Assembly (NCBI GenBank): GCA_934167135.1
Contig: CAKPKI010000001.1
Span: 1 to 51,042, forward strand
Length of the DNA stretch: 51,042 nt
Reading direction: 5' to 3'
Source: an uncultured Clostridia bacterium
Lineage (GTDB): Bacteria > Bacillota > Clostridia > TANB77 > CAG-508
Shown: positions 2,693-39,518 of the stretch, in pieces
How the letters are laid out: each line of letters starts with the position of its first letter
Numbering within the stretch: position 1 is the first letter of the stretch
Notes under the pieces: model-generated
What the model was told of the DNA's origin: nothing
Databases searched by the model: none
What the model saw: the letters and a program-made list of their open reading frames with translations, nothing else
Made by a program: the position numbers and the translations under genes

Positions 2693-3160
2693 TCAGACCA
2701 CCGTTGCAATTGATAACGCCATAACAATTATTGCTGGCATTCCAGCTCCTACCCAAATAATAATTACTGGTCCAAGTGCTATTTTAGGCAAACTATTTAA
2801 AACCACCAAAAAAGGTTCCGAAACTTTAGATATAAATGGCGACCACCAAAGTATTATTGCTATTATTACACCAGCAATGCTACCTAATCCAAAGCCAATT
2901 AATGTTTCCTCACATGTTATTTTTAAATGTTCTAATAAATTATTTGATGATAAATTCATAAATGTTTTTACTATTCTAGATGGTTGGCTGGCTATAAAAC
3001 TATCTATTATTCCTTTGCTTGCAAGAATCTCCCACAATGCTATAAAAGCTATAACTATAAATATTTGCGTAGTTAAAATTTTTATTTTCCTTATTTTTAT
3101 TTTTCTTAAATATTTTTTTCTATCATTGGAAATTATTTCTTTATTTTTCAAATCTATCAC
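2693..3160 (-). pseudogene. ABC transporter permease (NitT/TauT-like), N-terminal 155 aa only
   Basis: WEILASKGIIDSFIASQPSRIV...LVVLNSLPKIALGPVIIIWVGAGMPAIIVMALSIATVV matches the N-terminal two thirds of TauC/SsuC-type permeases. The frame stops after SIATVV, where roughly 100 more residues would be expected. Confidence 0.6.
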
Positions 3161-6182: not shown

Positions 6183-6279
6183 ATGGTCATAACTTTTTAT
6201 ATTGTTACTATTTATTTATAGTAACTGTTGCAACCATATACTAATATTTTATACCATTTATAAAAAGGAGGTTAAGATT

Positions 6280-7683
6280 ATGAAACAAAATATTTTTATA
6301 GGCGGAGCATGGCCTTATGCTAATGGTCTACTTCATGTAGGTCACATTGCCTCACTTCTTCCAGGAGATGTTATTGCTAGATACTATCGTAAAAAAGGAG
6401 CAGATGTATTATATGTATCTGGAACTGATTCACATGGTACACCTATAACTTTAAGAGCTCAAAAAGAAAATTGCAATCCTATGAGCATAGTTAATCGGTA
6501 TCATAAAGAATTTTGCTATTGTTTTGATAAATTACAATTCTCATATGACAATTATACCTTAACATGTAATCCATATCATAAAGAGTTTGTAAAATCTTGT
6601 ATTCAGAAGATTTATGACAACGGATATATCTATTCAAAAGATGGACATCTTTACTGGAAACTTAGTAGTTTTCAAAAAGAAATAGAAGAGTTTGTCCATT
6701 TACATGAGGATACTTGGCGTTTTAATGCTATTAATGAATCAAAAAAATATTTAAAAGAAAAATTACATGACCGTGGTATTACACGCCAGTTAGAATGGGG
6801 AATTGATGTTCCTATTAAGGGCTTTGATGATAAAAAGATTTATGTTTGGATTGAGGCAGTTTTAGGATATATTTCAGCAGGAAAATACTTTTGTGAACAA
6901 CATAATTTAGATTGGAATGAATTTTACAAAAATTCAAATGTAAAATCTTATTTTATTCATGGAAAAGATAATATTCCTTTCCATACTATTATTTACCCAG
7001 CATTATTACTTTCTTTAAACGAAGGATATCACCTTCCAGATTACATGATTTCTAGTGAATATCTTAATGTAGATGATGAAAAGATTTCAAAAAGTCAAGG
7101 CAATGGTGTAACTGCTAGAGAACTTATTGAAAAATACAATTCAGATACTATTAGATATTACATGATTTCTCAAGCTCCAGAGCAAAAAGATTCTAATTTT
7201 AGTTATGATGTATTAATTCAACTTCATAACAAAAAATTGGTTGGTGAATATGGTAATTTTGTTAATCGCAATTTAGCTTTTTTAGTAAAAAAATTTGATG
7301 GTCTCATCCCTTATGGTATTATTGACGAAGAAGTAAAAAAACATATTTTAAACACTTATAAGACAGTAGGCAATTTGATTGAAACAGGTAATTTAAAAAA
7401 TGCTATATGCAAAATTCAGGAATTAGTACAATTTGCAAACAAATATTATGATGATAATACACCTTGGATTTATGTAAAAAAAGATATTGACATTTTTAAT
7501 AATATAACTTCCACTTGTATTGATTTAATTATTAATATTGCAAATTTATATGAACCATTTATTCCTGATTCATCACAAAAAGTGTTTAGCTTTTTTGGAA
7601 AGTCCAACTATAATTGGGAATATGTTTCTGTTAAGCCTTTAATTTATTTGCAAAATATTAGTGTTCTTTTTAATAGAATTTAA
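6280..7683 (+). CDS. metG: Methionyl-tRNA synthetase-like protein (467 aa) lacking the zinc-knuckle part of the connective peptide and the C-terminal tRNA-binding appendix
   Basis: WPYANGLLHVGH (HIGH motif), GTDSHGTPI, FSYDNY, YVWIEAVLGY, GKDNIPFHTIIYPALL, KISKSQG (KMSKS motif) and an anticodon-domain pattern NKYYDDNTPW. The start is set at the ATG after AAAAGGAGG, and the longer track ORF is a 5' extension. Confidence 0.85.
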   Translation: MKQNIFIGGAWPYANGLLHVGHIASLLPGDVIARYYRKKGADVLYVSGTDSHGTPITLRAQKENCNPMSIVNRYHKEFCYCFDKLQFSYDNYTLTCNPYHKEFVKSCIQKIYDNGYIYSKDGHLYWKLSSFQKEIEEFVHLHEDTWRFNAINESKKYLKEKLHDRGITRQLEWGIDVPIKGFDDKKIYVWIEAVLGYISAGKYFCEQHNLDWNEFYKNSNVKSYFIHGKDNIPFHTIIYPALLLSLNEGYHLPDYMISSEYLNVDDEKISKSQGNGVTARELIEKYNSDTIRYYMISQAPEQKDSNFSYDVLIQLHNKKLVGEYGNFVNRNLAFLVKKFDGLIPYGIIDEEVKKHILNTYKTVGNLIETGNLKNAICKIQELVQFANKYYDDNTPWIYVKKDIDIFNNITSTCIDLIINIANLYEPFIPDSSQKVFSFFGKSNYNWEYVSVKPLIYLQNISVLFNRI

Positions 7684-7739: not shown

Positions 7740-7921
7740 TTAAATACTCTTTTCACCAAGTTCTTTCCACATTACATTAAAATATTCGCTAAATTTAGGA
7801 TTTTCTCTGCAATTTAATGGTGTTCTATTTTTCATTTCAAAATCAATATTGTGTATGTTTTTTACTGTAGCTGGTCTTTCTGATAATACAATGACTCTAT
7901 CTGACATACTTATTGCTTCTG
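7740..7921 (-). pseudogene. 3' fragment of the split ABC transporter ATP-binding gene (NitT/TauT-like)
   Basis: Hand translation gives (E)AISMSDRVIVLSERPATVKNIHNIDFEMKNRTPLNCRENPKFSEYFNVMWKELGEKSI*. This is the expected continuation of ...MVTHDISE found at 15000-15014. It is not in the ORF track. Confidence 0.8.
7916..7921. repeat. Left copy of the 6-bp core CTTCTG shared by both element/host junctions
   Basis: The same hexamer occurs at 14999-15004. Joining the flanks across one copy restores the codons GAT ATA TCA GAA GCA ATA AGT (DISEAIS). Confidence 0.7.
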
Positions 7922-7941
7922 GTTTATGTCAAAATAGACTG

Positions 7942-8421
7942 TCATTTTTTATAAATTTTCTTATTTATAATATAATCAACAAATATTGTTAGTTTGTTCT
8001 TTATTTCATCTGAATATGATAAGAAATTATAATTTAATGAGCCACAGATATATCCTAAATCCAGTATTTCATTTGAATTCAAATCAACTACAATTATTTC
8101 ATCTTTATTATCAAACATTCTACTATCTATTAGTTCTTCTGCATTAAAATTTATAAATTCTTTACCTTCAATATTTTCTTTAAAGATTATACTATCTTTT
8201 TTTACTAAAATATCTGCTTCATTGTCAGCGATATCCATAATTTCAAATTTAAAATAATCTATGTTTAATTCTCTTTTTAAATACGCTATTAATCTATCTT
8301 CAATAAAATCCTTTTTTTGGTACAAAATTTTTCTTATTCCTTGCAATTCTTCTTTAGCTTCTTTTAATTTTAATTCTGCATTTGATTCTATTTTTAATAG
8401 TTTTTGATATGATTGTATCAT
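7942..8421 (-). CDS. Hypothetical acidic protein (159 aa), last gene of the element cargo operon
   Basis: ORF only. It has a coiled-coil-like N-terminus and I recognise no family. Confidence 0.45.
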   Translation of the reverse strand: MIQSYQKLLKIESNAELKLKEAKEELQGIRKILYQKKDFIEDRLIAYLKRELNIDYFKFEIMDIADNEADILVKKDSIIFKENIEGKEFINFNAEELIDSRMFDNKDEIIVVDLNSNEILDLGYICGSLNYNFLSYSDEIKNKLTIFVDYIINKKIYKK

Positions 8422-8472
8422 TTGTTTTCCTTTCTTTGTTCTTTTTTGAACAAATTTGTATTAATAAACCTA

Positions 8473-9363
8473 TTATAAATTATAATATTGTTTTATTTTT
8501 TTTACTAATTCAAGTGTTGCCTTATTACACATGTTCTTTTTTAATGTTGCAATTCCCTCTTTCAATTCTGATAAGTCTAATTTTTGTATAATTTTTATAT
8601 TATCTTTAATATCGCTTAAATTTTCCGTATTGGTAAATCCAATCCCCATATCATTAAGTACAAGCCTTTTCATTATTGAGGAACTTGAAACTTCGTAATC
8701 AGCAGTTAAAGATATATTTTCTTTATTACAAAAATCATCCAATATTTTCTTTTTTGCTGATAACGATTTTGGCAATATCAATTTATGATTTTCAATCTCT
8801 TTAAAATCTTTAATTGGATTCTTTTCTAAATACTGCTTACTAGCAAAAAAGCTAAAACTTGAATCCTTTAATGGTATAATTTCAATATTTGAGTATTTTT
8901 TGTCTTTATATGGTAAATTTAATACAACTATATCTAATTCTCCATTTGCTAATTTCTGCATTAATACATCAGTTATTCCACTACCAATAGAAACTTCAAT
9001 ATCTGGATATTCTTTTATAAACTCTAAAAGTGGTTCAAATATTAAAGATGATAATAAAGAATTGCCTCCTCCTATTCTTATTTTTCCCTTTTCTAGATTA
9101 ATGTATTTCGAAAATATGTTTTCTGCATTATTCATAGTTTCTATACTATTTTTTATATATTCATATAAATTTTTACCTTCTTCTGTTAATTCTACACCAT
9201 TTTTGTTTCTGTAAAAAACTTTTCCTCCTAATATATTTTCAAGTTTTTGTATTGATTGTGTTATTGCTGATTGCGAAATATACATACTTTCAGCGGTTTT
9301 TGAAATATTTTTATATTTTACTACTTCATAAAATACCTTATATAATTCTAAATTTGTATTCAT
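8473..9363 (-). CDS. LysR-family transcriptional regulator
   Basis: N-terminal HTH LELYKVFYEVVKYKNISKTAESMYISQSAITQSIQKLE, plus a LysR substrate-binding-type C-terminus. The start is set at the ATG after GGAGGATAAG. Confidence 0.85.
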   Translation of the reverse strand: MNTNLELYKVFYEVVKYKNISKTAESMYISQSAITQSIQKLENILGGKVFYRNKNGVELTEEGKNLYEYIKNSIETMNNAENIFSKYINLEKGKIRIGGGNSLLSSLIFEPLLEFIKEYPDIEVSIGSGITDVLMQKLANGELDIVVLNLPYKDKKYSNIEIIPLKDSSFSFFASKQYLEKNPIKDFKEIENHKLILPKSLSAKKKILDDFCNKENISLTADYEVSSSSIMKRLVLNDMGIGFTNTENLSDIKDNIKIIQKLDLSELKEGIATLKKNMCNKATLELVKKIKQYYNL

Positions 9364-9377
9364 CTTATCCTCCAATA

Positions 9378-10859
9378 TTAATTTTTAGATATACCATCAT
9401 CTCGAGTTGTTGCATTTAATGATTTTTCTTGTTTTTTACTCTTTGTTTCTTCATTAGTTTCTTTTGGCAATTCTACTTGAAATGCTTTTTTTTCGTTTGA
9501 AATAGGTTCTGTTGGATATATTATATTAGATTTTATTGTATCATCTAAATATTTCATTTTTTCCTTGTTTTCTTTAATATTAGCAAATATCTTTTTTATT
9601 TTGGAAATTATTCCTTGTTCTTCTTTTATTGCTAATGCTTTTGTTTTGGTCTTTTTATCATTAAAGTATTGATTAATATTTATTCCATCTGCACCATCAA
9701 CAATTTTTCCTATGTCTTTTTCATTATTTGAATATATGCATGTAAAACCATTACCTGGCTGAAATGTAAATATTTTATTTGAGTCATAACTGTTAATTAT
9801 TGAGGCTAGTAACCAATGTGTCATTCTTCCTGATAAATACAAATTTTTGTTTTCTTTTATTTCTGGTAATACACATTTTTCATAATCCTCTAATGAATAT
9901 TGTTCTTTTGTAAGGTCAATATCCATAAAAAGATTTTCCTTATTTTCAATAATATTATAGGCTAAGCCCTCTGTTTGTTTTAAACCTTTTTTCTTAGGAA
10001 TTTCCTTTATTGGAATATATTCACTTTTTCTTGCGTCATATATACTTACATCTTTTGCCCCTTGTTGTTTTAATGCTTTACATATAGCCCCCAAAACAAA
10101 ATTCGCCCTAACTCCATTTATTTTTATAGGTTGGTTTGATTTTATTTTTGTTTGTATATTTTTATATATTTGTGGCAATGCCTCAGAAGTCCATTTTACT
10201 TTTTTTATTGCTGTTCCATCTTCTGTTATTAACTCTTTTCCATATCCTAGTTCAAACCCTAATTCTGTATCATCAATCATTGTTTCTTTAATATCTTTAT
10301 GTTGAATTTCATCTTTTTCTGCATATTTGCTCTTTTGAATAATATCTGATACTAACGATTCTATTACAGTTGATTTGTTCAAAAGTTCTCCTCTTTTTAG
10401 TCCTACTATTTTACCTTGTAAATATGGTTCTTTTGAATATATTTCTTCTTGTCCTTCTAATCTAGAATCTATACACCCTACACAGTCTAGTCCCAGTGAT
10501 TGCCCAAATTGTAACCATTCATTTTTCTTTTCTTCATTATTGCTTAATACTACAAAACTATCACAGTGTTGAAAAACTTGCTTATTTTCTTTTGAAATTA
10601 CTCCTCCAACATCAACTAATACTATTTCATTTGTTTGATTGTCTATTGCTTGGCATGCATTATTTATAAAACTATCAGTGAACTTTCCTTTTTTTCTTAC
10701 AATTTCTATTTCTTTTTGATTTTTGTTGTTGCTCCAAGTTCCCTCTCCATCAGGACATGCTCTGATAATTGTATAAGCATTTGTTGGCATTTTGTCAATT
10801 AAATTTGCTATAAATACAGTTTTGCCAGAATGAGGTGGCCCACAAAAAACTATCTTCAT
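9378..10859 (-). CDS. P-loop NTPase fused to two tandem Csx3-like domains and a Lys/Glu-rich tail (493 aa)
   Basis: Walker A GPPHSGKT and a Walker-B-like LVDVGG. Residues about 300-390 (FMDIDL...LPEIKENKNLYLSGRMTHWLLASIINSY..IFTFQPGNGFTCIYS..IGKIVD) resemble the Csx3 family pattern as I recall it from A. fulgidus Csx3 (LPE..ISGRGPIWL...VAVYDPRLG.VVV). Residues about 195-285 show a degenerate copy (KINGVRANFVLGAICKAL..VSIYDARKSEYIPI). Confidence 0.55.
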   Translation of the reverse strand: MKIVFCGPPHSGKTVFIANLIDKMPTNAYTIIRACPDGEGTWSNNKNQKEIEIVRKKGKFTDSFINNACQAIDNQTNEIVLVDVGGVISKENKQVFQHCDSFVVLSNNEEKKNEWLQFGQSLGLDCVGCIDSRLEGQEEIYSKEPYLQGKIVGLKRGELLNKSTVIESLVSDIIQKSKYAEKDEIQHKDIKETMIDDTELGFELGYGKELITEDGTAIKKVKWTSEALPQIYKNIQTKIKSNQPIKINGVRANFVLGAICKALKQQGAKDVSIYDARKSEYIPIKEIPKKKGLKQTEGLAYNIIENKENLFMDIDLTKEQYSLEDYEKCVLPEIKENKNLYLSGRMTHWLLASIINSYDSNKIFTFQPGNGFTCIYSNNEKDIGKIVDGADGININQYFNDKKTKTKALAIKEEQGIISKIKKIFANIKENKEKMKYLDDTIKSNIIYPTEPISNEKKAFQVELPKETNEETKSKKQEKSLNATTRDDGISKN

Positions 10860-10966
10860 TTGTTTCTCCTTTTATATTATAATTTTTTTATTTTTTCTAA
10901 CTATTTATAATATATAGAAAAAAATAAAAATAATCAAGTGGTTTCTTTTAAAATTAATGAAAATAT

Positions 10967-11207
10967 GTCACTGGTTAATGGTTTATTTTTAATTAATACA
11001 AAGAAATCCTTGAAATATAAGCTTTTTATTGCATTCCTCGGTTTATTACAAAATTTAAGAAATTCTAATTTGTTTTATGGGTCCTTTCCACTATCGTGAA
11101 CTCTTACCATAAAACTGCATAGAATTTCTAAAATTTTTCCATGCACATTCGTCATTTCATTCAAAGCTTATATTTCAAGGATTTCTTTTGAAAATTTTAT
11201 CAAAACC
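10967..11207 (+). repeat. Copy A of a roughly 240-bp nested-palindrome intergenic repeat (MITE-like)
   Basis: It has perfect 26-bp terminal inverted repeats, AAAGAAATCCTTGAAATATAAGCTTT (11000-11025) and its reverse complement (11163-11188). There are also inner inverted repeats (AAAATTTAAGAAATTCTA / TAGAATTTCTAAAATTTT and GTTTTATGG / CCATAAAAC). It is near-identical to the reverse complement of 22418-22659. Confidence 0.85.
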
Positions 11208-11284
11208 ATTATCCTGTAACAAAAATATTACTACTCTGAAAACAAACAGCTCTCTTTTCATAGTAGTAACATAAAAATTATTAT

Positions 11285-11950
11285 CTATTTCATATTTAAT
11301 TGCTTATTTAATTTATTAGTCAATATTTTTTGTCTAATCATATTTATAGCATATGCTACTATTGCAATCACACCATACAAAATCAATATATTTTTGATAT
11401 CTATATCTGTAGAATATTGAACTTTTGTTGGATTAATTTCATTAATTGCTTTATTTAGAATCATTTCATATCCAATATTTATAATAAAAGTAGAAACAGC
11501 TATTATCATAAAAGCAACTATTAATTCAATAATTACTTGTTTTTTTGAGGTCTTCTGGATTGCAACTATGTAGATTATAGTTCCTAATACAATGCCTATT
11601 ATCAATGTTAAAGAATATACTCGCATAATTCTGTTTGTTGAAAATATACTAATAAGTTTATATAAAGATATTCCTTCTGAAGGATAATCTTCTCCATATA
11701 ATTCTTTTTCTTCTTTTGCTTTTTTATCAATTTGTTCAGCCTGTTCTTGATAAGCTTTTCCAATTTCAATTAAAGTTTCAGAATCGCTGTCCAAACTATT
11801 TATTATTTCTAATTGAGTATTCTCATATACAGATGATAAAAACAAAGTCGTAGTTCCTATAAATACAGATATTATAACTGTATATAAAATTGTTACTAAT
11901 AGTTTTTTTATTGAAAATTTTTTGAATTCTATTTTCTTCATATCACTCAC
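11285..11950 (-). CDS. Membrane protein (about 4 TM) partnered with the LytTR regulator
   Basis: Hydrophobic segments are LLVTILYTVIISVFIGTTTLFL, SLTLIIGIVLGTIIYIVAI, IIELIVAFMIIAVSTFII and ILILYGVIAIVAYAI. Its start overlaps the LytTR gene stop by 8 nt. Confidence 0.6.
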   Translation of the reverse strand: MSDMKKIEFKKFSIKKLLVTILYTVIISVFIGTTTLFLSSVYENTQLEIINSLDSDSETLIEIGKAYQEQAEQIDKKAKEEKELYGEDYPSEGISLYKLISIFSTNRIMRVYSLTLIIGIVLGTIIYIVAIQKTSKKQVIIELIVAFMIIAVSTFIINIGYEMILNKAINEINPTKVQYSTDIDIKNILILYGVIAIVAYAINMIRQKILTNKLNKQLNMK

Positions 11951-12407
11951 TCCTATCTTTTAAAAATCTCATAATTTCTGTTGTTTTCCTTTTTGAAACA
12001 CTTTCTTCATTTCCATCTTTAAATTTAACTATTATCTTTCCAATGATACTCGTATTAAAGCATTTAACATGATTTATATTTATAATTGATGAATTAGATA
12101 TTCTAATAAAGTCCTTTGAAGGGAGTGCCTCTTCAAGATAATACAATTTTTCTTTTATTTTATAAACTCCGTCTTTTGTTTTACAAAAGTTATTTTTTTC
12201 TTCACTAAAAAACATTATTACATCTGATACATTAATTATAAAAATATCATTATTTTGCATAGCAATTATCTGTTTTATTGACTTAGAATTTTTTGATAAT
12301 AATTCATTTTCTAATTTTTGTACTTCTTCATTTTTTTCTGGTGCATTAATGCACACTTCTATGCTTTGAAATTCACTTGAAATATTAGTACATACTTTAA
12401 ATTCCAT
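11943..12407 (-). CDS. LytTR-domain DNA-binding protein (stand-alone, no receiver domain)
   Basis: The C-terminal half (YYLEEALPSKDFIRISNSSIININHVKCFN...GKIIVKFKDGNEESVSKRK) fits the LytTR domain pattern. Confidence 0.65.
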   Translation of the reverse strand: MEFKVCTNISSEFQSIEVCINAPEKNEEVQKLENELLSKNSKSIKQIIAMQNNDIFIINVSDVIMFFSEEKNNFCKTKDGVYKIKEKLYYLEEALPSKDFIRISNSSIININHVKCFNTSIIGKIIVKFKDGNEESVSKRKTTEIMRFLKDRSE

Positions 12408-12532
12408 TTTACACCTCCTGAAATTATTATAGCAATAATCATTTTCCTTTTCAATGTTTTGGTATTTTATTAAGATAACTGTATTGTTTTCTTAGACAAC
12501 TGTTATATACCAGTGCAAATAAGAAGAACTAC

Positions 12533-14080
12533 CTAGGTAATTCTGTTTAATTGCTTAAAATTGAAATATAAATCTACCTGTTTATCTTGATGTATCTCAA
12601 TTTTATTAATAATTACTTTCATAAATTCTGGTGTTAGTTCTTTTAACGCAAAAAATTCTTGTACAATACTTTTTATTTTTTCTGTATCATCTTGTTTTAA
12701 TTCTCCTTTTTGTTTTTTAATTTCTATGTATTCTTTTTCTTTTTGTTTTATTTCATCTCCAAATTTTTTCAATAATCTTTCATACATTTCTTCACTTATT
12801 TTATTGTTTAATTTGTCTATATACATTTGTTCAATATTATTATTTATCAATTTTATCTCGCTTTCTAATTTTTGAAGTATTTTTCCATAATCATATTTTG
12901 TCATTCCTCTTTTTACTTCTAATTCTATTTTTTCACTATCTATTTTTTGAAATAAATTTTTAATATAATTAATTATAATATCTTCTAAATTATTATAACT
13001 AAATCCATGTGATGTGCAAAGCCCTAATTTTGAATTTCTGCGATAATTATTGCATACCATATAATAATTACCGTTCTTTTTTCCTCTTACACCTATTTTA
13101 TGCTTACATTCGTAACAGAAAAGCAATCCATCTAGCAAAAACATATTCTTTTTTTCATTTCTATTGTAGCTCTGAACTATTACCATTTTTTGCACAACAT
13201 CAAATACTTTTTTATCTATTATTGGTTCATGTGTATTTTCTACAACAACCCATTTTTCTTCTGGATTTTGTCTGATTTTTCTATTTTTATAACTTATTCT
13301 ACTTCTTTTATTTTGCACTGTTGTGCCTATATAAACCTTGTTTTTTAATATATTTTTTACTGTTTTATTTTCCCAAAAAGTTTCTTTATTATATCTTGAT
13401 TTATTAGCTGTCGGAATATTGTTGCTATTTAAATAATCTCTTATTGTTCCAACTTGATTTCCATTAGATGCCATATTAAAAATGCTTCTTACAATTTTTG
13501 CCTCTTGCTCATAAATTATTAATTTATTTTTATCATTTGAATCTTTTATGTATCCAAGTGGCGTTTTTCCACCTACCCATTTTCCTTGTTTTTGCATAGT
13601 GTGCATTGCTGTTCTGATTTTTTTTGATAAGTCTTTTGAATACATATCATTTAATATTGATTTAAATGGTGCAATATCATTGTTGCCATTTGATGTTTCA
13701 AAAGTATCTATTCCATCTGTTACTGAAACATATCTTACATTATTTTCTGGGAACCATTTTTCTATATATTCTCCCGTTTCTATATAGTCACGACCTAAAC
13801 GAGATAAGTCTTTTGTTACAACCATATTAATTTTTCCGTTTTCTATATCTCTTATCATCCTTTGAAAATCTGGTCTATTAAAATTTGTCCCTGTAAAACC
13901 TTGATCTATATATGTATCTATTAATTTATAATTTTCCCCTAATTTTTGCACATATTCTGTTAGTAATGTTCTTTGATTTTTTATGCTTTCACTTTCATCA
14001 TATCCTCTGTCTACATCTTCTTTTGATAGTCTTATATAAATTGCTACTTTGTATGTCGTTTTCTCTTTTTGTTCAAGCAT
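12533..14080 (-). CDS. Large serine recombinase (integrase/resolvase family, 515 aa)
   Basis: The N-terminal resolvase catalytic domain is VAIYIRLSKED...SIKNQR...GFTGTNFNRPDFQRMI...VVTKDLSRLGRD. It is followed by the recombinase domain, a Cys-rich zinc-ribbon region (CYECKHK...CNNYRR...C) and a coiled-coil C-terminus. Confidence 0.9.
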   Translation of the reverse strand: MLEQKEKTTYKVAIYIRLSKEDVDRGYDESESIKNQRTLLTEYVQKLGENYKLIDTYIDQGFTGTNFNRPDFQRMIRDIENGKINMVVTKDLSRLGRDYIETGEYIEKWFPENNVRYVSVTDGIDTFETSNGNNDIAPFKSILNDMYSKDLSKKIRTAMHTMQKQGKWVGGKTPLGYIKDSNDKNKLIIYEQEAKIVRSIFNMASNGNQVGTIRDYLNSNNIPTANKSRYNKETFWENKTVKNILKNKVYIGTTVQNKRSRISYKNRKIRQNPEEKWVVVENTHEPIIDKKVFDVVQKMVIVQSYNRNEKKNMFLLDGLLFCYECKHKIGVRGKKNGNYYMVCNNYRRNSKLGLCTSHGFSYNNLEDIIINYIKNLFQKIDSEKIELEVKRGMTKYDYGKILQKLESEIKLINNNIEQMYIDKLNNKISEEMYERLLKKFGDEIKQKEKEYIEIKKQKGELKQDDTEKIKSIVQEFFALKELTPEFMKVIINKIEIHQDKQVDLYFNFKQLNRIT

Positions 14081-14092
14081 TTTGCCTCCTTT

Positions 14093-14203
14093 CTATGCTT
14101 GAATATTTTTCTTAAAAATATTCATTATTAAATGCTTTATTACTTCTTCTAATTCCTTACCTTTTTCATCAAAGTACATATTAATTTTGAAATTCTTATT
14201 CAT
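14093..14203 (-). CDS. Small ORF (36 aa, MNKNFKINMYFDEKGKELEEVIKHLIMNIFKKNIQA) immediately upstream of the recombinase
   Basis: Hand-found. RBS AGGGAGAGTGAG precedes the ATG at 14203. The stop TAG lies 10 nt before the recombinase ATG and next to its RBS, AAAGGAGG. Confidence 0.35.
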   Translation of the reverse strand: MNKNFKINMYFDEKGKELEEVIKHLIMNIFKKNIQA

Positions 14204-14368
14204 ATTAACTCACTCTCCCTATACTATATATACATCTATTTTCTTATAAAAATTCTCTTTTTTATTTAATTACTGGCAATTTTTTGGAATGCATCCCAAA
14301 ATCAGCTTATAAATAGTTCAAGGGTAGCTATGTGACAGCTTTTCGCTATCACACACCTACCCTAGTAA

Positions 14369-14830
14369 TTAAAATATGTTATCATTATATTTTACTAAAT
14401 TAATTGCCGAATCTAATGTTTCAGTGCAACATAATTTCCCTCGAATATCTACATATAATAAATCGCTAATATTAGACAAGCTTCTTGCTTGCTTAATATC
14501 ACTTATAACAATTTCTTTTTTAAAGTTCATATCTTTGTCAATTATTCTAATATCATAACATTTTCTTTTTGATTTGAATATCAAATATTTTACATTTTTA
14601 TTCTTCTGATGATGATCAAATTCTCCTAATCCTATATCAAAAACTAACTTATTATTTGTATTTCTATTCTCTATACTTGGAACTCTAATTAATTTTATTT
14701 CTTTAAAAATTTTACTTAAAAATACAGTTGATATTACATCATCTACATGAAATGTTCCTGAATGTGTAACAAAATTTGCTTTGTTATACTGCTTTGTTAT
14801 TTTTATATTTTTATACTTAAACATTTTCAT
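14369..14830 (-). CDS. Chimeric ORF with a MYG1-family (UPF0160) N-terminal about 75 aa followed by an unrelated C-terminus
   Basis: FVTHSGTFHVDDVISTVFL...LVFDIGLGEFDHHQ matches the MYG1 N-terminal metal-binding pattern. Similarity ends right after DHHQ, and full-length MYG1 proteins are about twice this size. The start is set at the ATG after AAGGTGAAG. Confidence 0.45.
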   Translation of the reverse strand: MKMFKYKNIKITKQYNKANFVTHSGTFHVDDVISTVFLSKIFKEIKLIRVPSIENRNTNNKLVFDIGLGEFDHHQKNKNVKYLIFKSKRKCYDIRIIDKDMNFKKEIVISDIKQARSLSNISDLLYVDIRGKLCCTETLDSAINLVKYNDNIF

Positions 14831-14998
14831 TATCTTCACCTTTTTCATTATATTACTATTAATTGCGTATTTCAATATACTTAATTTACCTTTCAAGATC
14901 TTTCACAACTACTATATTATGTAAATTTTATCAAAATCATTACATTTTCATCAAATTCAAATTGTTTTATCTAGCATACTGTCTACTTTGTAATCTAC

Positions 14999-15004
14999 CT
15001 TCTG
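14999..15004. repeat. Right copy of the 6-bp core CTTCTG
   Basis: See 7916-7921. Confidence 0.7.
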
Positions 15005-15569
15005 ATATATCATGTGTTACCATTAAAGCAGTAATATTTTCAGCTTTTAGAATCTTAAAAATATCTTCAGTAACCATTAATCTTGTTTGATAATCTAAAG
15101 CAGAAAATGCTTCATCAAGCAATAAAATTTTAGGACGAATTGCAAGAGTTCGTATTAATGCAACCCTTTGTCTCATTCCTCCAGACAATTGAGTTGGATA
15201 TTTATCTTTAAATTCATAAAGCCCATATTTTTTTAGCAATTCTTCCACATATTTTCTATTCTCTTGCGTATTCTCTTTTTGAATTTCCAATCCCAATAAT
15301 ACATTTTTATATATTGTTCTCCATTCTAAAAGATTATCTTTTTGTAACATATATCCTATTTTTCCATCTATGTAAATTTCTCCTGATGTTTTATTTTCTA
15401 GCCCTGATATTATTGACAATAATGTAGATTTTCCACAACCACTTGGTCCTATTATACTTATATATTCTCCTTCTTTTATATCAAAGCTGATATTCTTCAA
15501 CGCTTCTATTTCTCCATTTTGAGATTGATATGTTTTACAAATATTTTTTACTTCTAATATTTTTTTCAT
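14999..15569 (-). pseudogene. 5' fragment of the split ABC transporter ATP-binding gene (NitT/TauT-like)
   Basis: Walker A GPSGCGKST, Q-loop, signature LSGGMRQR, Walker B ILLLDEAFSALD and H-loop MVTHDISE. The frame then runs into element DNA (GRLQSRQYAR*). The start is at the ATG after GGAGGTATTGACT. Confidence 0.85.
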
Positions 15570-15632
15570 AGTCAATACCTCCATGTATATATCTTATGAA
15601 AAAAATAAGAATACGCCACATATAATACAATT

Positions 15633-15683: not shown

Positions 15684-16106
15684 TTATATTGTTACTTTTT
15701 TAAGTTTAAATTTTCTATAGTAAGCCTTTATTTGACCTTGAAACAGTCCTCCAGTTGTATCTCTATCAGTCCCTTCATCAAATAAAACATATACATGATT
15801 TTTGTATTTGAATACATCATTATACGAATAGTTTTTACGTAAGTCAGCAAATCCTTCTTTGGATAATTCGGCATATCTAGCATACCAGTGGCCCGTTGTC
15901 TTGTATTCATATGAAAATTGCGGATTTATATTAGTGTAATAAATGAGTGTTGCCTCTTCGGCTTCTTCATCCATCTCCATCTCGCTCAATAAATCTTCAA
16001 TTTTTGACAACTTATTGTTTCTTATTGTCTCCCGTTCCTCATATTCCTTGTCAACTTCTTCCTTTAATTCTCTCAGCTCTGCATTTGATAATCCTTTTAC
16101 GTACAT
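15684..16106 (-). CDS. Hypothetical protein (141 aa)
   Basis: ORF with AAAGGAGCG before the internal ATG (MYVKGLSNAEL...). It has an acidic coiled-coil N-terminus and I recognise no family. Confidence 0.5.
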   Translation of the reverse strand: MYVKGLSNAELRELKEEVDKEYEERETIRNNKLSKIEDLLSEMEMDEEAEEATLIYYTNINPQFSYEYKTTGHWYARYAELSKEGFADLRKNYSYNDVFKYKNHVYVLFDEGTDRDTTGGLFQGQIKAYYRKFKLKKVTI

Positions 16107-16239
16107 ATTTTTCGCTCCTTTCAAAAAAACATTTAATAAAATCCCAAATTTTGCATACATATATTTATTGTATGCTACTCTATCCTCCTTTTTCTAAATT
16201 GCCTTAATCATAACATATTTTACGTAAAATTGCAAGTAT

Positions 16240-22417: not shown

Positions 22418-22659
22418 GGTTTGATAAAATTTTTAAAAGAAATCCTTTGAAATATAAGCTTTGAATGAAATGACGAATGTGCATGGAAAAATTTTAGAAA
22501 TTCTATGCAGTTTTATGGTAAGAGTTCACGATAGTGGAAAGGACCCATAAAACAAATTAGAAGTTCTTAAATTTTGTAATAAACCGAGGAATGTAATAAA
22601 AAGCTTATATTTCAAAGGATTTCTTTGTATTATTTTAAAATAAACCGTTAACCAGTAAC
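22418..22659 (-). repeat. Copy B of the nested-palindrome repeat (inverted relative to copy A)
   Basis: Base-by-base comparison shows near identity to the reverse complement of 10967-11207, including the asymmetric centre TAAGAGTTCACGATAGTGGAAAGGAC. Confidence 0.85.
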
Positions 22660-39431: not shown

Positions 39432-39518
39432 AAGAAATCATTAAAATAAATTAGAATTTCTTAAATTTTGTAATAAACCGAGGAATGTAATGAAAAACTT
39501 ATATTTTAATGATTTCTT
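39432..39518 (-). repeat. Copy C, a miniature (about 87 bp) derivative of the nested-palindrome repeat
   Basis: It matches the 22556-22630 part of copy B (TTCTTAAATTTTGTAATAAACCGAGGAATGTAAT). It has its own 17-bp terminal inverted repeats, AAGAAATCATTAAAATA / TATTTTAATGATTTCTT. Confidence 0.7.

Follow-up and report, generated by a model that had tools for sequence, protein, structure and literature searches.

A 7.08-kb integrative element with a TndX/TnpX-like large serine recombinase interrupts an ABC-transporter ATPase gene in an uncultured Clostridia bacterium

A 7.08-kb element is cleanly inserted, by conservative recombination, in an ATP-binding cassette (ABC) transporter ATPase gene on contig CAKPKI010000001.1 of an uncultured Clostridia bacterium; the whole stretch of 51,042 nucleotides (nt) that was analyzed is referred to here as the window. 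We propose, with a probability of about 0.88, that the inserted segment is a small, non-phage integrative element that was put in place by its own large serine recombinase (LSR), a TndX/TnpX-like enzyme with few targets. This kind of element is already known, and the element in the window is a well-resolved further example of it. The coordinates of its features are collected in Table 1.

The frame of the ATPase gene breaks off after the residues VTHDISE, from where it runs through 10 foreign codons (GRLQSRQYAR*) to a stop at 14967, and the 3' part of the gene is found at the opposite end of the element. The hexanucleotide CTTCTG, which reads CAGAAG on the gene strand, is present at both junctions (7916-7921 and 14999-15004), and one such core together with the DNA between the cores gives an element size of 7,083 bp. 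Joined through a single core, the flanks read GAT ATA TCA GAA GCA ATA AGT in frame, and the repaired target site (attB) reconstructed for the window lineage contains ...GATATATCAGAAGCAATAAGT.... The rejoined ATPase is 253 amino acids (aa) long, or 248 aa with the ATG at 15569 as its start (another possible ATG is found upstream, at 15584), the latter being the length of the intact homologues. It matches the Pfam family ABC_tran (E 3.9e-33) and the NCBIfam SaoA ATPase profile, the latter over positions 2-237 of 248 and therefore across the junction. The interrupted target consists of the H-loop codons of an ABC-importer ATPase gene, CAT GAT ATA TCA GAA G|CA. An RNA gene as the target, and any known RNA as part of the element, are excluded by Rfam and tRNA scans of the window, which gave no matches. 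Base composition does not distinguish the element (24.4% vs. 26.6% G+C). A preliminary description, made from the sequence of the window, had placed the break after VTHDISE, the continuation near 7919-7740 and CTTCTG at both junctions, and all of these coordinates and sequences were verified. Its further claim, that the parts can be rejoined without gain or loss to a protein of about 254 aa, is borne out by a frame of 253 or 248 aa whose junction equals the uninterrupted site in six syntenic contigs.

These contigs were reached by a protein search with the joined ATPase, which yielded thousands of intact homologues, the best of which have 248 aa and are 92-95% identical to it. Two of these best homologues are encoded on contigs L001-L006, which are syntenic with the window and share the gene order HtpG, a variable slot, ATPase, methionyl-tRNA synthetase (MetRS; in some), NUDIX, radical SAM, two small genes, permease, binding protein and histidyl-tRNA synthetase (HisRS). 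In all six, the site is uninterrupted and reads CATGATATAT-CAGAAG-CAATAAGTATGTCAGA, which is the sequence of the window flanks joined via a single core; the two segments of the window overlap on this empty site by just 12 nt. Because the joined flanks are the same as the empty site in six contigs and the overlap is only 12 nt, the insertion was conservative. The search for empty sites in relatives that the preliminary description had recommended thus ended with an intact gene containing exactly the predicted attB. Its worry that the two halves might be independent genes is dispelled by the intact 248-aa homologues and by the exact joining of the pieces into the sequence of the orthologue. In a sister species, moreover, the intact ATPase P0247 and the truncated ATPase P0243 are identical over their 192 shared residues, and the empty contig L099 and the occupied contigs L102-L104, in which the element carries RhuM, have flanks that are 96-99% identical. 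Judged from these contigs, the sister species is polymorphic for presence and absence of the element.

The same findings bear on whether the arrangement could be an artefact, with either separate ATPase pieces or a mis-assembled metagenome contig behind it. The window is a contig of a metagenome-assembled genome (MAG), and in at least one related locus, possibly a chimera, the left junction of an ATPase gene is joined to the right junction of a different target gene. However, the identical element with identical proteins, and with the same junctions, was assembled independently at the same place in at least three samples, with ERZ28614492, ERZ28614118 and ERZ4560644 carrying this exact element, and, as stated above, the pieces join exactly into the orthologue sequence, which leaves an artefact with a negligible chance.

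The recombinase that would have carried out the insertion is encoded within the element. It matches PF00239 (E 5.8e-24), PF07508 (E 4.1e-26) and PF13408 (E 6.2e-12) of Pfam, with the recombinase and zinc beta-ribbon domains located in its C-terminal half. Among solved structures, its closest relative is the TnpX catalytic domain (2mhc, E 1.6e-25), with whose YERLSRDD the motif YIRLSKED of the LSR is aligned and with which SRLGR is also conserved; the second-best solved match is SprA/YokA of SPbeta (E 1.3e-23). TndX, which is among the best annotated plasmid matches, is 34.7-36.9% identical (E 6e-93), with 34.7% identity over 498 residues. The top NCBIfam models, CcrC, CcrB and XisF, all score far under their cut-offs. 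By these comparisons, the LSR is a complete, TndX/TnpX-like large serine recombinase, its affiliation with TnpX and TndX being one of pairwise similarity. The large serine integrase of the preliminary description is therefore retained as far as its complete domains are concerned, but it is neither a one-off nor of the phage type: it belongs to a TndX/TnpX-like family with at least three look-alike targets.

This family was assembled from 80 loci of GTDB species genomes, in which the LSRs are 65-93% identical to that of the window, and six loci of metagenome contigs; over all of these loci, the relatives are 65-97% identical. The hosts of the 80 GTDB loci are nearly all human or animal gut MAGs labelled as uncultured Clostridia or Clostridium sp. 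Three classes of target recur. Class A, to which the window belongs, is the ABC ATPase gene cut at VTHDISE|AISMSD (about 20 loci); class B is a gene of the ZIP transporter family cut at ICxHDIPE|GISMAVPMKNGG (about 32 loci); and class C is a gene for a second ZIP protein cut at TLHNIPE|GMAVGV (about 15 loci). The rebuilt class B and class C genes encode full-length ZIP proteins and are cut at the codons of HxxPEG. The three classes have the DNA motif CAYGAYATAYCAGAAGsnAT..ATG in common. A single-case target, ...SRDIPE|, is found in L040, and a sub-lineage with 75%-identical LSRs (L083-L085) has another core (CATCTG or CATCAG) and another target. In the clustering of the LSRs, classes A, B and C are interleaved among enzymes that are 93-97% identical, and all three are used by enzymes with 89-97% identity to one another; for instance, L029 (class A) and L034 (class B), which are found in one MAG, have LSRs that are 97% identical, and several further MAGs contain two copies. 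Target class is, on this clustering, independent of LSR relatedness, i.e., one type of LSR uses several target genes. The LSR DNA is also more conserved than the host flank (90.8% vs. 76.2% in L007), and horizontal spread is therefore indicated.

Some loci of the family have unusual junctions. In L010 (277-5097), the locus mentioned above, an ATPase-type left junction and a ZIP-type right junction lie across one element, which may be an assembly chimera of two copies or a real rearrangement by recombination between elements of one genome. L056 has two successive right-type junctions (5206 and 7477), after each of which comes a ZIP 3' part; as the second contains an in-frame stop, the target may have been duplicated or be a relic. 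The LSR gene of L064 adjoins the opposite, left-type end of the element (about 9991-10040).

The ends of the element are shared across the family. In almost every locus with a readable junction, the left attachment site (attL) consists of the left part of the target, CAGAAG and GTAGATTnCAAAGTAGACAGT, and the right attachment site (attR) of ACTGyCTAyTTTnnnATCAAC, CAGAAG and the right part of the target. The family consensus for the joint of the circular form (attP) is ACTGtCTAtTTTnanATCAAC-CAGAAG-GtAgATTcCAAAGTAGACAgt, a quasi-palindrome with 21-nt arms whose dyad centre is on the GA of the core, and the attP joint reconstructed for the window element contains ...GACATAAACCAGAAGGTAGATTAC.... 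In the window, 15 of the 21 positions of the terminal inverted repeat match. Taken alone, this repeat is not above chance in DNA of 24% G+C, where 956 inverted pairs were found and where it is absent from the 25 longest. The arms are nevertheless significant, because dozens of independent elements have these arms, too, and have them at identical positions relative to the junctions. The attP-like inverted repeat of the preliminary description is thus upheld as a quasi-palindrome with family-conserved arms, but not by the window copy with its 15 of 21 positions. In two loci, L088 and L090, the core is CAGAAG in attL but CAGAGG in attR; strand exchange should for this reason take place 5' of core position 5, which rules out positions 5-6, while positions 1-4 are all compatible. 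The most likely crossover point is the GA in the middle of CAGAAG.

We propose that LSR dimers would bind attP and a chromosomal look-alike site, that both strands would be cut, staggered by 2 nt, at the GA in the middle of CAGAAG, and that subunit rotation and religation would then generate the two junctions, attL and attR. On the analogy of TnpX and TndX, excision is probably also catalyzed by the LSR, possibly assisted by the conserved 36-aa open reading frame (ORF) beside it. Since the ATPase is cut right after its switch histidine, the gene is off for as long as it carries the element.

In the main clade of the family, 43-58 bp separate the end of the LSR gene from attR, and the cargo lies upstream of the LSR gene. 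The smallest element, L037, has 2.4 kb and consists of the LSR module only, and the largest has about 10.8 kb, with cargo ranging from none to about 8 kb. The cargo is mostly unique to each element; the sole recurrent gene is RhuM (the candidate-defence system PDC-S05 of PADLOC), which is present in about 10 of 23 elements. By its cargo, the window element is not an integrative mobilizable element: profile scans of its eight ORFs detected no relaxase or mobilization families, oriT not having been searched for, and none were found among the 25 commonest cargo families of the 23 elements. Nor is it a prophage, as it has only 7 kb and no structural, packaging or lysis genes were found in it.

It may still be asked whether the segment is what is left, now stranded, of a prophage or a conjugative or mobilizable element, with a unidirectional, phage-type integrase that needs a separate directionality factor or helpers. 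The LSR matches phrog_95 ("integrase"), LSRs that are 30-35% identical to it occur in "Bacteriophage sp." records from the human gut, and some decay is visible in the truncated MYG1 gene and the inserted repeat that resembles a miniature inverted-repeat transposable element (MITE). Against this, the matches of the LSR to "integrase" and "DNA invertase" families are the only phage-function PHROG matches of the element, and the LytTR and LysR proteins match only PHROGs of "unknown function" or "other". Replication, coupling-protein and phage structural families were not detected among the window cargo any more than relaxases, 2.4 kb suffices for an intact member of the family, the junctions of the family are absent from IMG/VR, and the closest characterized relatives of the enzyme, TnpX and TndX, are transposon recombinases. 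We consider such a remnant highly improbable.

Table 1. Features of the element, its junctions and the interrupted transporter genes in the window.
Feature	Position	Strand	Remarks
Truncated partner permease	2696..3151	-	Residues 1-152 of 266; operon intact in L001 and L099
ATPase gene, 3' part	7740..7915	-	AISMSDRVIVLSERPATVKN...EKSI*; stop codon 7740-7742
attR	7916..7942	-	Right arm ACAGTCTATTTTGACATAAAC, then core CAGAAG (7921..7916); putative crossover dinucleotide GA at 7919-7918
Cargo ORF, 159 aa	7942..8421	-	No family match
LysR-family transcriptional regulator, 300 aa, cargo	8473..9375	-	Family match
AAA-Csx3 fusion, 493 aa, cargo	9378..10859	-	P-loop ATPase and Csx3/Crn3-like domain; PADLOC E 1.7e-44 to 1.7e-48; other profile matches weak
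MITE-like palindromic repeat, about 200 nt	10995..11195		Inside the element; repeat search
Cargo protein, 221 aa	11285..11950	-	Gene overlaps the end of the LytTR gene; no family match
LytTR-domain DNA-binding protein, 154 aa, cargo	11943..12407	-	Domain match
LSR, 515 aa	12533..14080	-	Resolvase, Recombinase and Zn ribbon; catalytic serine in YIRLSKED
Conserved ORF, 36 aa	14093..14203	-	MNKNFKINMYFDEKGKELEEVIKHLIMNIFKKNIQA; just upstream of the LSR gene
Conserved hairpin	14321..14364	-	TAGGGTAGGTGTGTGATAG...CTGTCACATAGCTACCCT; upstream edge of the conserved recombinase module
ORF, 175 aa	14369..14896	-	Truncated remnant of a MYG1/UPF0160-family cargo gene; full-length version of 317 aa in the L021 element
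attL	14978..15004	-	Core CAGAAG (15004..14999), then left arm GTAGATTACAAAGTAGACAGT; putative crossover dinucleotide GA at 15002-15001
ATPase gene, 5' part	14999..15569	-	Walker A, signature motif, Walker B and H-loop; ends ...ALMVTHDISE; start ATG 15569

The small ORF accompanies the LSR gene in 60 loci, in which it encodes 32-48 aa and which include the most distant LSR clades. Its differences per site are 0.21, 0.12 and 0.31 at the first, second and third codon positions, respectively, a pattern that is as expected of coding sequence because the differences concentrate at third positions. Neither Pfam nor NCBIfam has a family that matches it, and each of the 247 relatives found in the database is unnamed and free of Pfam domains. 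The small ORF is a candidate accessory or directionality factor. A resemblance to small proteins of the TnpW type was not confirmed, a search of the literature giving nothing useful. In three loci (L015, L021 and L037), the gap that separates the small ORF from the LSR gene contains an extra insert of about 140 nt. On an Enterococcus faecium plasmid (L105), an unannotated 46-aa ORF (1264-1404) ends about 100 nt before tndX; the C-terminal half of this ORF (LQHLIKRLIKNEV) is, by eye only, loosely like the small ORF of the family (GLIKHLIINILKK).

Several observations weigh against the proposal that the segment was inserted by its own LSR as a few-target integrative element. The exact repaired ATPase of the window lineage is absent from about 15 billion proteins. 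The joint pattern of attP, which matches 18 of 25 reconstructed attPs, was found neither in the JGI metagenomes, for which no positive control was possible, nor in IMG/VR, where the attL control was also empty and which lacks the family, nor in 1.56 Mb of the loci analyzed here. Relatives, L007 and L008 among those compared, have a promoter-like spacer of about 75 nt (TTGAGC...GATATAAT) between the small ORF and the start of the LSR gene, and this spacer is missing from the window element (14081-14092). In the window element, an unusual 4.6 kb of cargo separates the LSR stop codon from attR; a few more distant relatives likewise have genes downstream of the LSR gene. Finally, the match of the LSR to DUF4368 (PF14287; E 2.2e-4, 21.8 bits) is under the Pfam cut-off of 25. 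Because the spacer is absent and the cargo lies between the LSR stop codon and attR, the activity of the window copy is uncertain.

The exact truncated ATPase of 200 aa is encoded on nine public contigs and, as its repaired form is absent, there is no sign of excision in the window lineage. The partner permease is truncated too, and no element-type junction was found at its breakpoint. The contig also lacks the gene for the binding protein of the transporter: where related genomes have the binding-protein and HisRS genes after the permease gene, the window has genes for a helix-turn-helix protein and S-adenosylmethionine synthetase. The insertion in the window lineage looks old or fixed, because only the occupied form is on record, a MITE-like repeat of the host lies inside the element and the permease is truncated. 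The window copy may functionally no longer matter, given the truncated permease and the binding-protein gene that is absent from the contig.

The state of this transporter also informs the alternative that the element is a regulated gene switch, similar to skin and SPbeta or to active lysogeny, in which conditional excision rebuilds the ATPase and ZIP genes and the 36-aa ORF serves as directionality factor. Excision would indeed restore the gene exactly, the recurrent targets are all transporter genes hit at codons of catalytic motifs, the small ORF is conserved with the LSR in the 60 loci mentioned above, and the hosts possess the sporulation-associated families Spo0A_C, SspH and Coat_F. However, the ABC importer ATPase and ZIP transporter genes are not sporulation genes, such as a mother-cell switch would target, and a rebuilt ATPase would not restore a transporter whose permease is truncated and whose binding-protein gene is absent from the contig. 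The patchy occupancy between strains and species and the highly variable cargo are as for a selfish element, and the excision product is not on record. A gene switch is accordingly judged very unlikely.

TnpX and TndX integrate and excise their elements without accessory factors (PMC2475636), and TndX needs a central GA and prefers conserved coding sequence, i.e., the codons of a Fic domain in Tn5397 (PMC4430133). The window element resembles Tn5397 of Clostridioides difficile in the broad LSR subfamily, the central GA of the target, the use of a conserved protein-coding sequence as target and the conservative, gene-interrupting insertion, but Tn5397 has 21 kb and is conjugative, whereas the window element has 7 kb, no conjugation genes and a 36-aa ORF upstream of its LSR gene, and the targets and end sequences of the two differ. 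With the mobilizable transposons Tn4451 and Tn4453 of Clostridium perfringens and C. difficile, which move via a circular form, it shares the small size (about 6 kb in those elements), and their TnpX is the best solved match of the LSR; target choice by TnpX is looser, however, and no relaxase was found in the window element. TnpX is also larger, at about 700 aa, and Tn4451 carries catP and a mobilization gene with oriT.

In the survey of Durrant et al. (2022), LSRs that are at least 90% identical use different target gene families via a shared, fairly long DNA motif, multi-targeting being defined there by over three clusters of target genes per 90% LSR cluster, and the DUF4368/TndX-like clade, with DUF4368 in 63% of it, is multi-targeting (PMC10083194). 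The family described here similarly uses three to five target classes with close LSRs, but it is borderline between "relatively site-specific" and "multi-targeting", and its match to DUF4368 is sub-threshold. As in SPbeta (SprA, spsM), skin (SpoIVCA, sigK), A118 (comK) and SCCmec (Ccr, rlmH), insertion is precise, within a gene or at its end, and excision would bring back the original sequence. Those systems comprise phages, relics of phages and resistance cassettes, which have just one dedicated site and whose directionality factor is separate, in contrast to the tiny element, variable cargo and several sites of the window family.

The family provides a resolved natural LSR system from uncultured gut Clostridia, in which the recombinase is joined by an attP consensus and by three natural variants of attB that one type of enzyme accepts. 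Such a system is of use for examining how serine integrases tolerate site variation and as a source of candidate genome-engineering enzymes with a defined 30-nt motif. The family parks in the conserved catalytic-motif codons of transporter genes, a strategy like that proposed for TndX and Fic domains, and spreads between species with small, variable cargo. ATPase and ZIP "pseudogenes" in MAG annotations are hereby flagged as insertion artefacts and not true gene loss. A more far-reaching proposal is that these elements form an undescribed group of minimal autonomous LSR transposons, consisting of the LSR and a dedicated 36-aa partner, whose recognition has evolved onto catalytic-motif codons (HDISE, HxxPEG) and which would act as reversible import switches and shuttle defence or regulatory cargo (RhuM, AAA-Csx3) between gut Clostridia. 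We regard this as unlikely; if it were true, such a transposon would find a landing site in almost any host.

Some of the cargo and neighboring sequences of the window element have features of their own. AAA-Csx3 belongs to a ring-nuclease family associated with type III systems of clustered regularly interspaced short palindromic repeats (CRISPR) and stands alone in the element; Tandem Repeats Finder reported no CRISPR-like array in the 51-kb window. The MITE-like repeat, which lies in an intergenic region of the element, is a nested palindrome; its terminal arms of 26 nt are perfect, and its fold is predicted at -60 to -68 kcal/mol. Other copies of it are found outside the element at 22429-22631 (97.5% identical, 11 kb away) and at 39442-39518, and partial copies in L001 and L040. 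Upstream of the LytTR gene, the direct repeats ACAGTTGTCT and ACAGTTATCT (about 12473-12503, reverse strand), whose starts are 21 nt apart, could be candidate binding boxes of the LytTR regulator.

The slot between the HtpG and ATPase genes varies in content: it holds an orphan ORF of 158 aa in the window (15684-16160, reverse strand), a homologue of MerR/TraG-like coupling proteins (629 aa) in both L001 and L099, and GNAT and Sua5-like genes in L003-L005. On the other side, a short-form MetRS gene (6202-7683, forward strand) adjoins attR outside the element and is convergent with the ATPase gene. It is present in L001 (10790-12193), which has an empty site, and absent from L003-L006 and L099, while the related element L041 carries two MetRS paralogues, 47-64% identical, as cargo.

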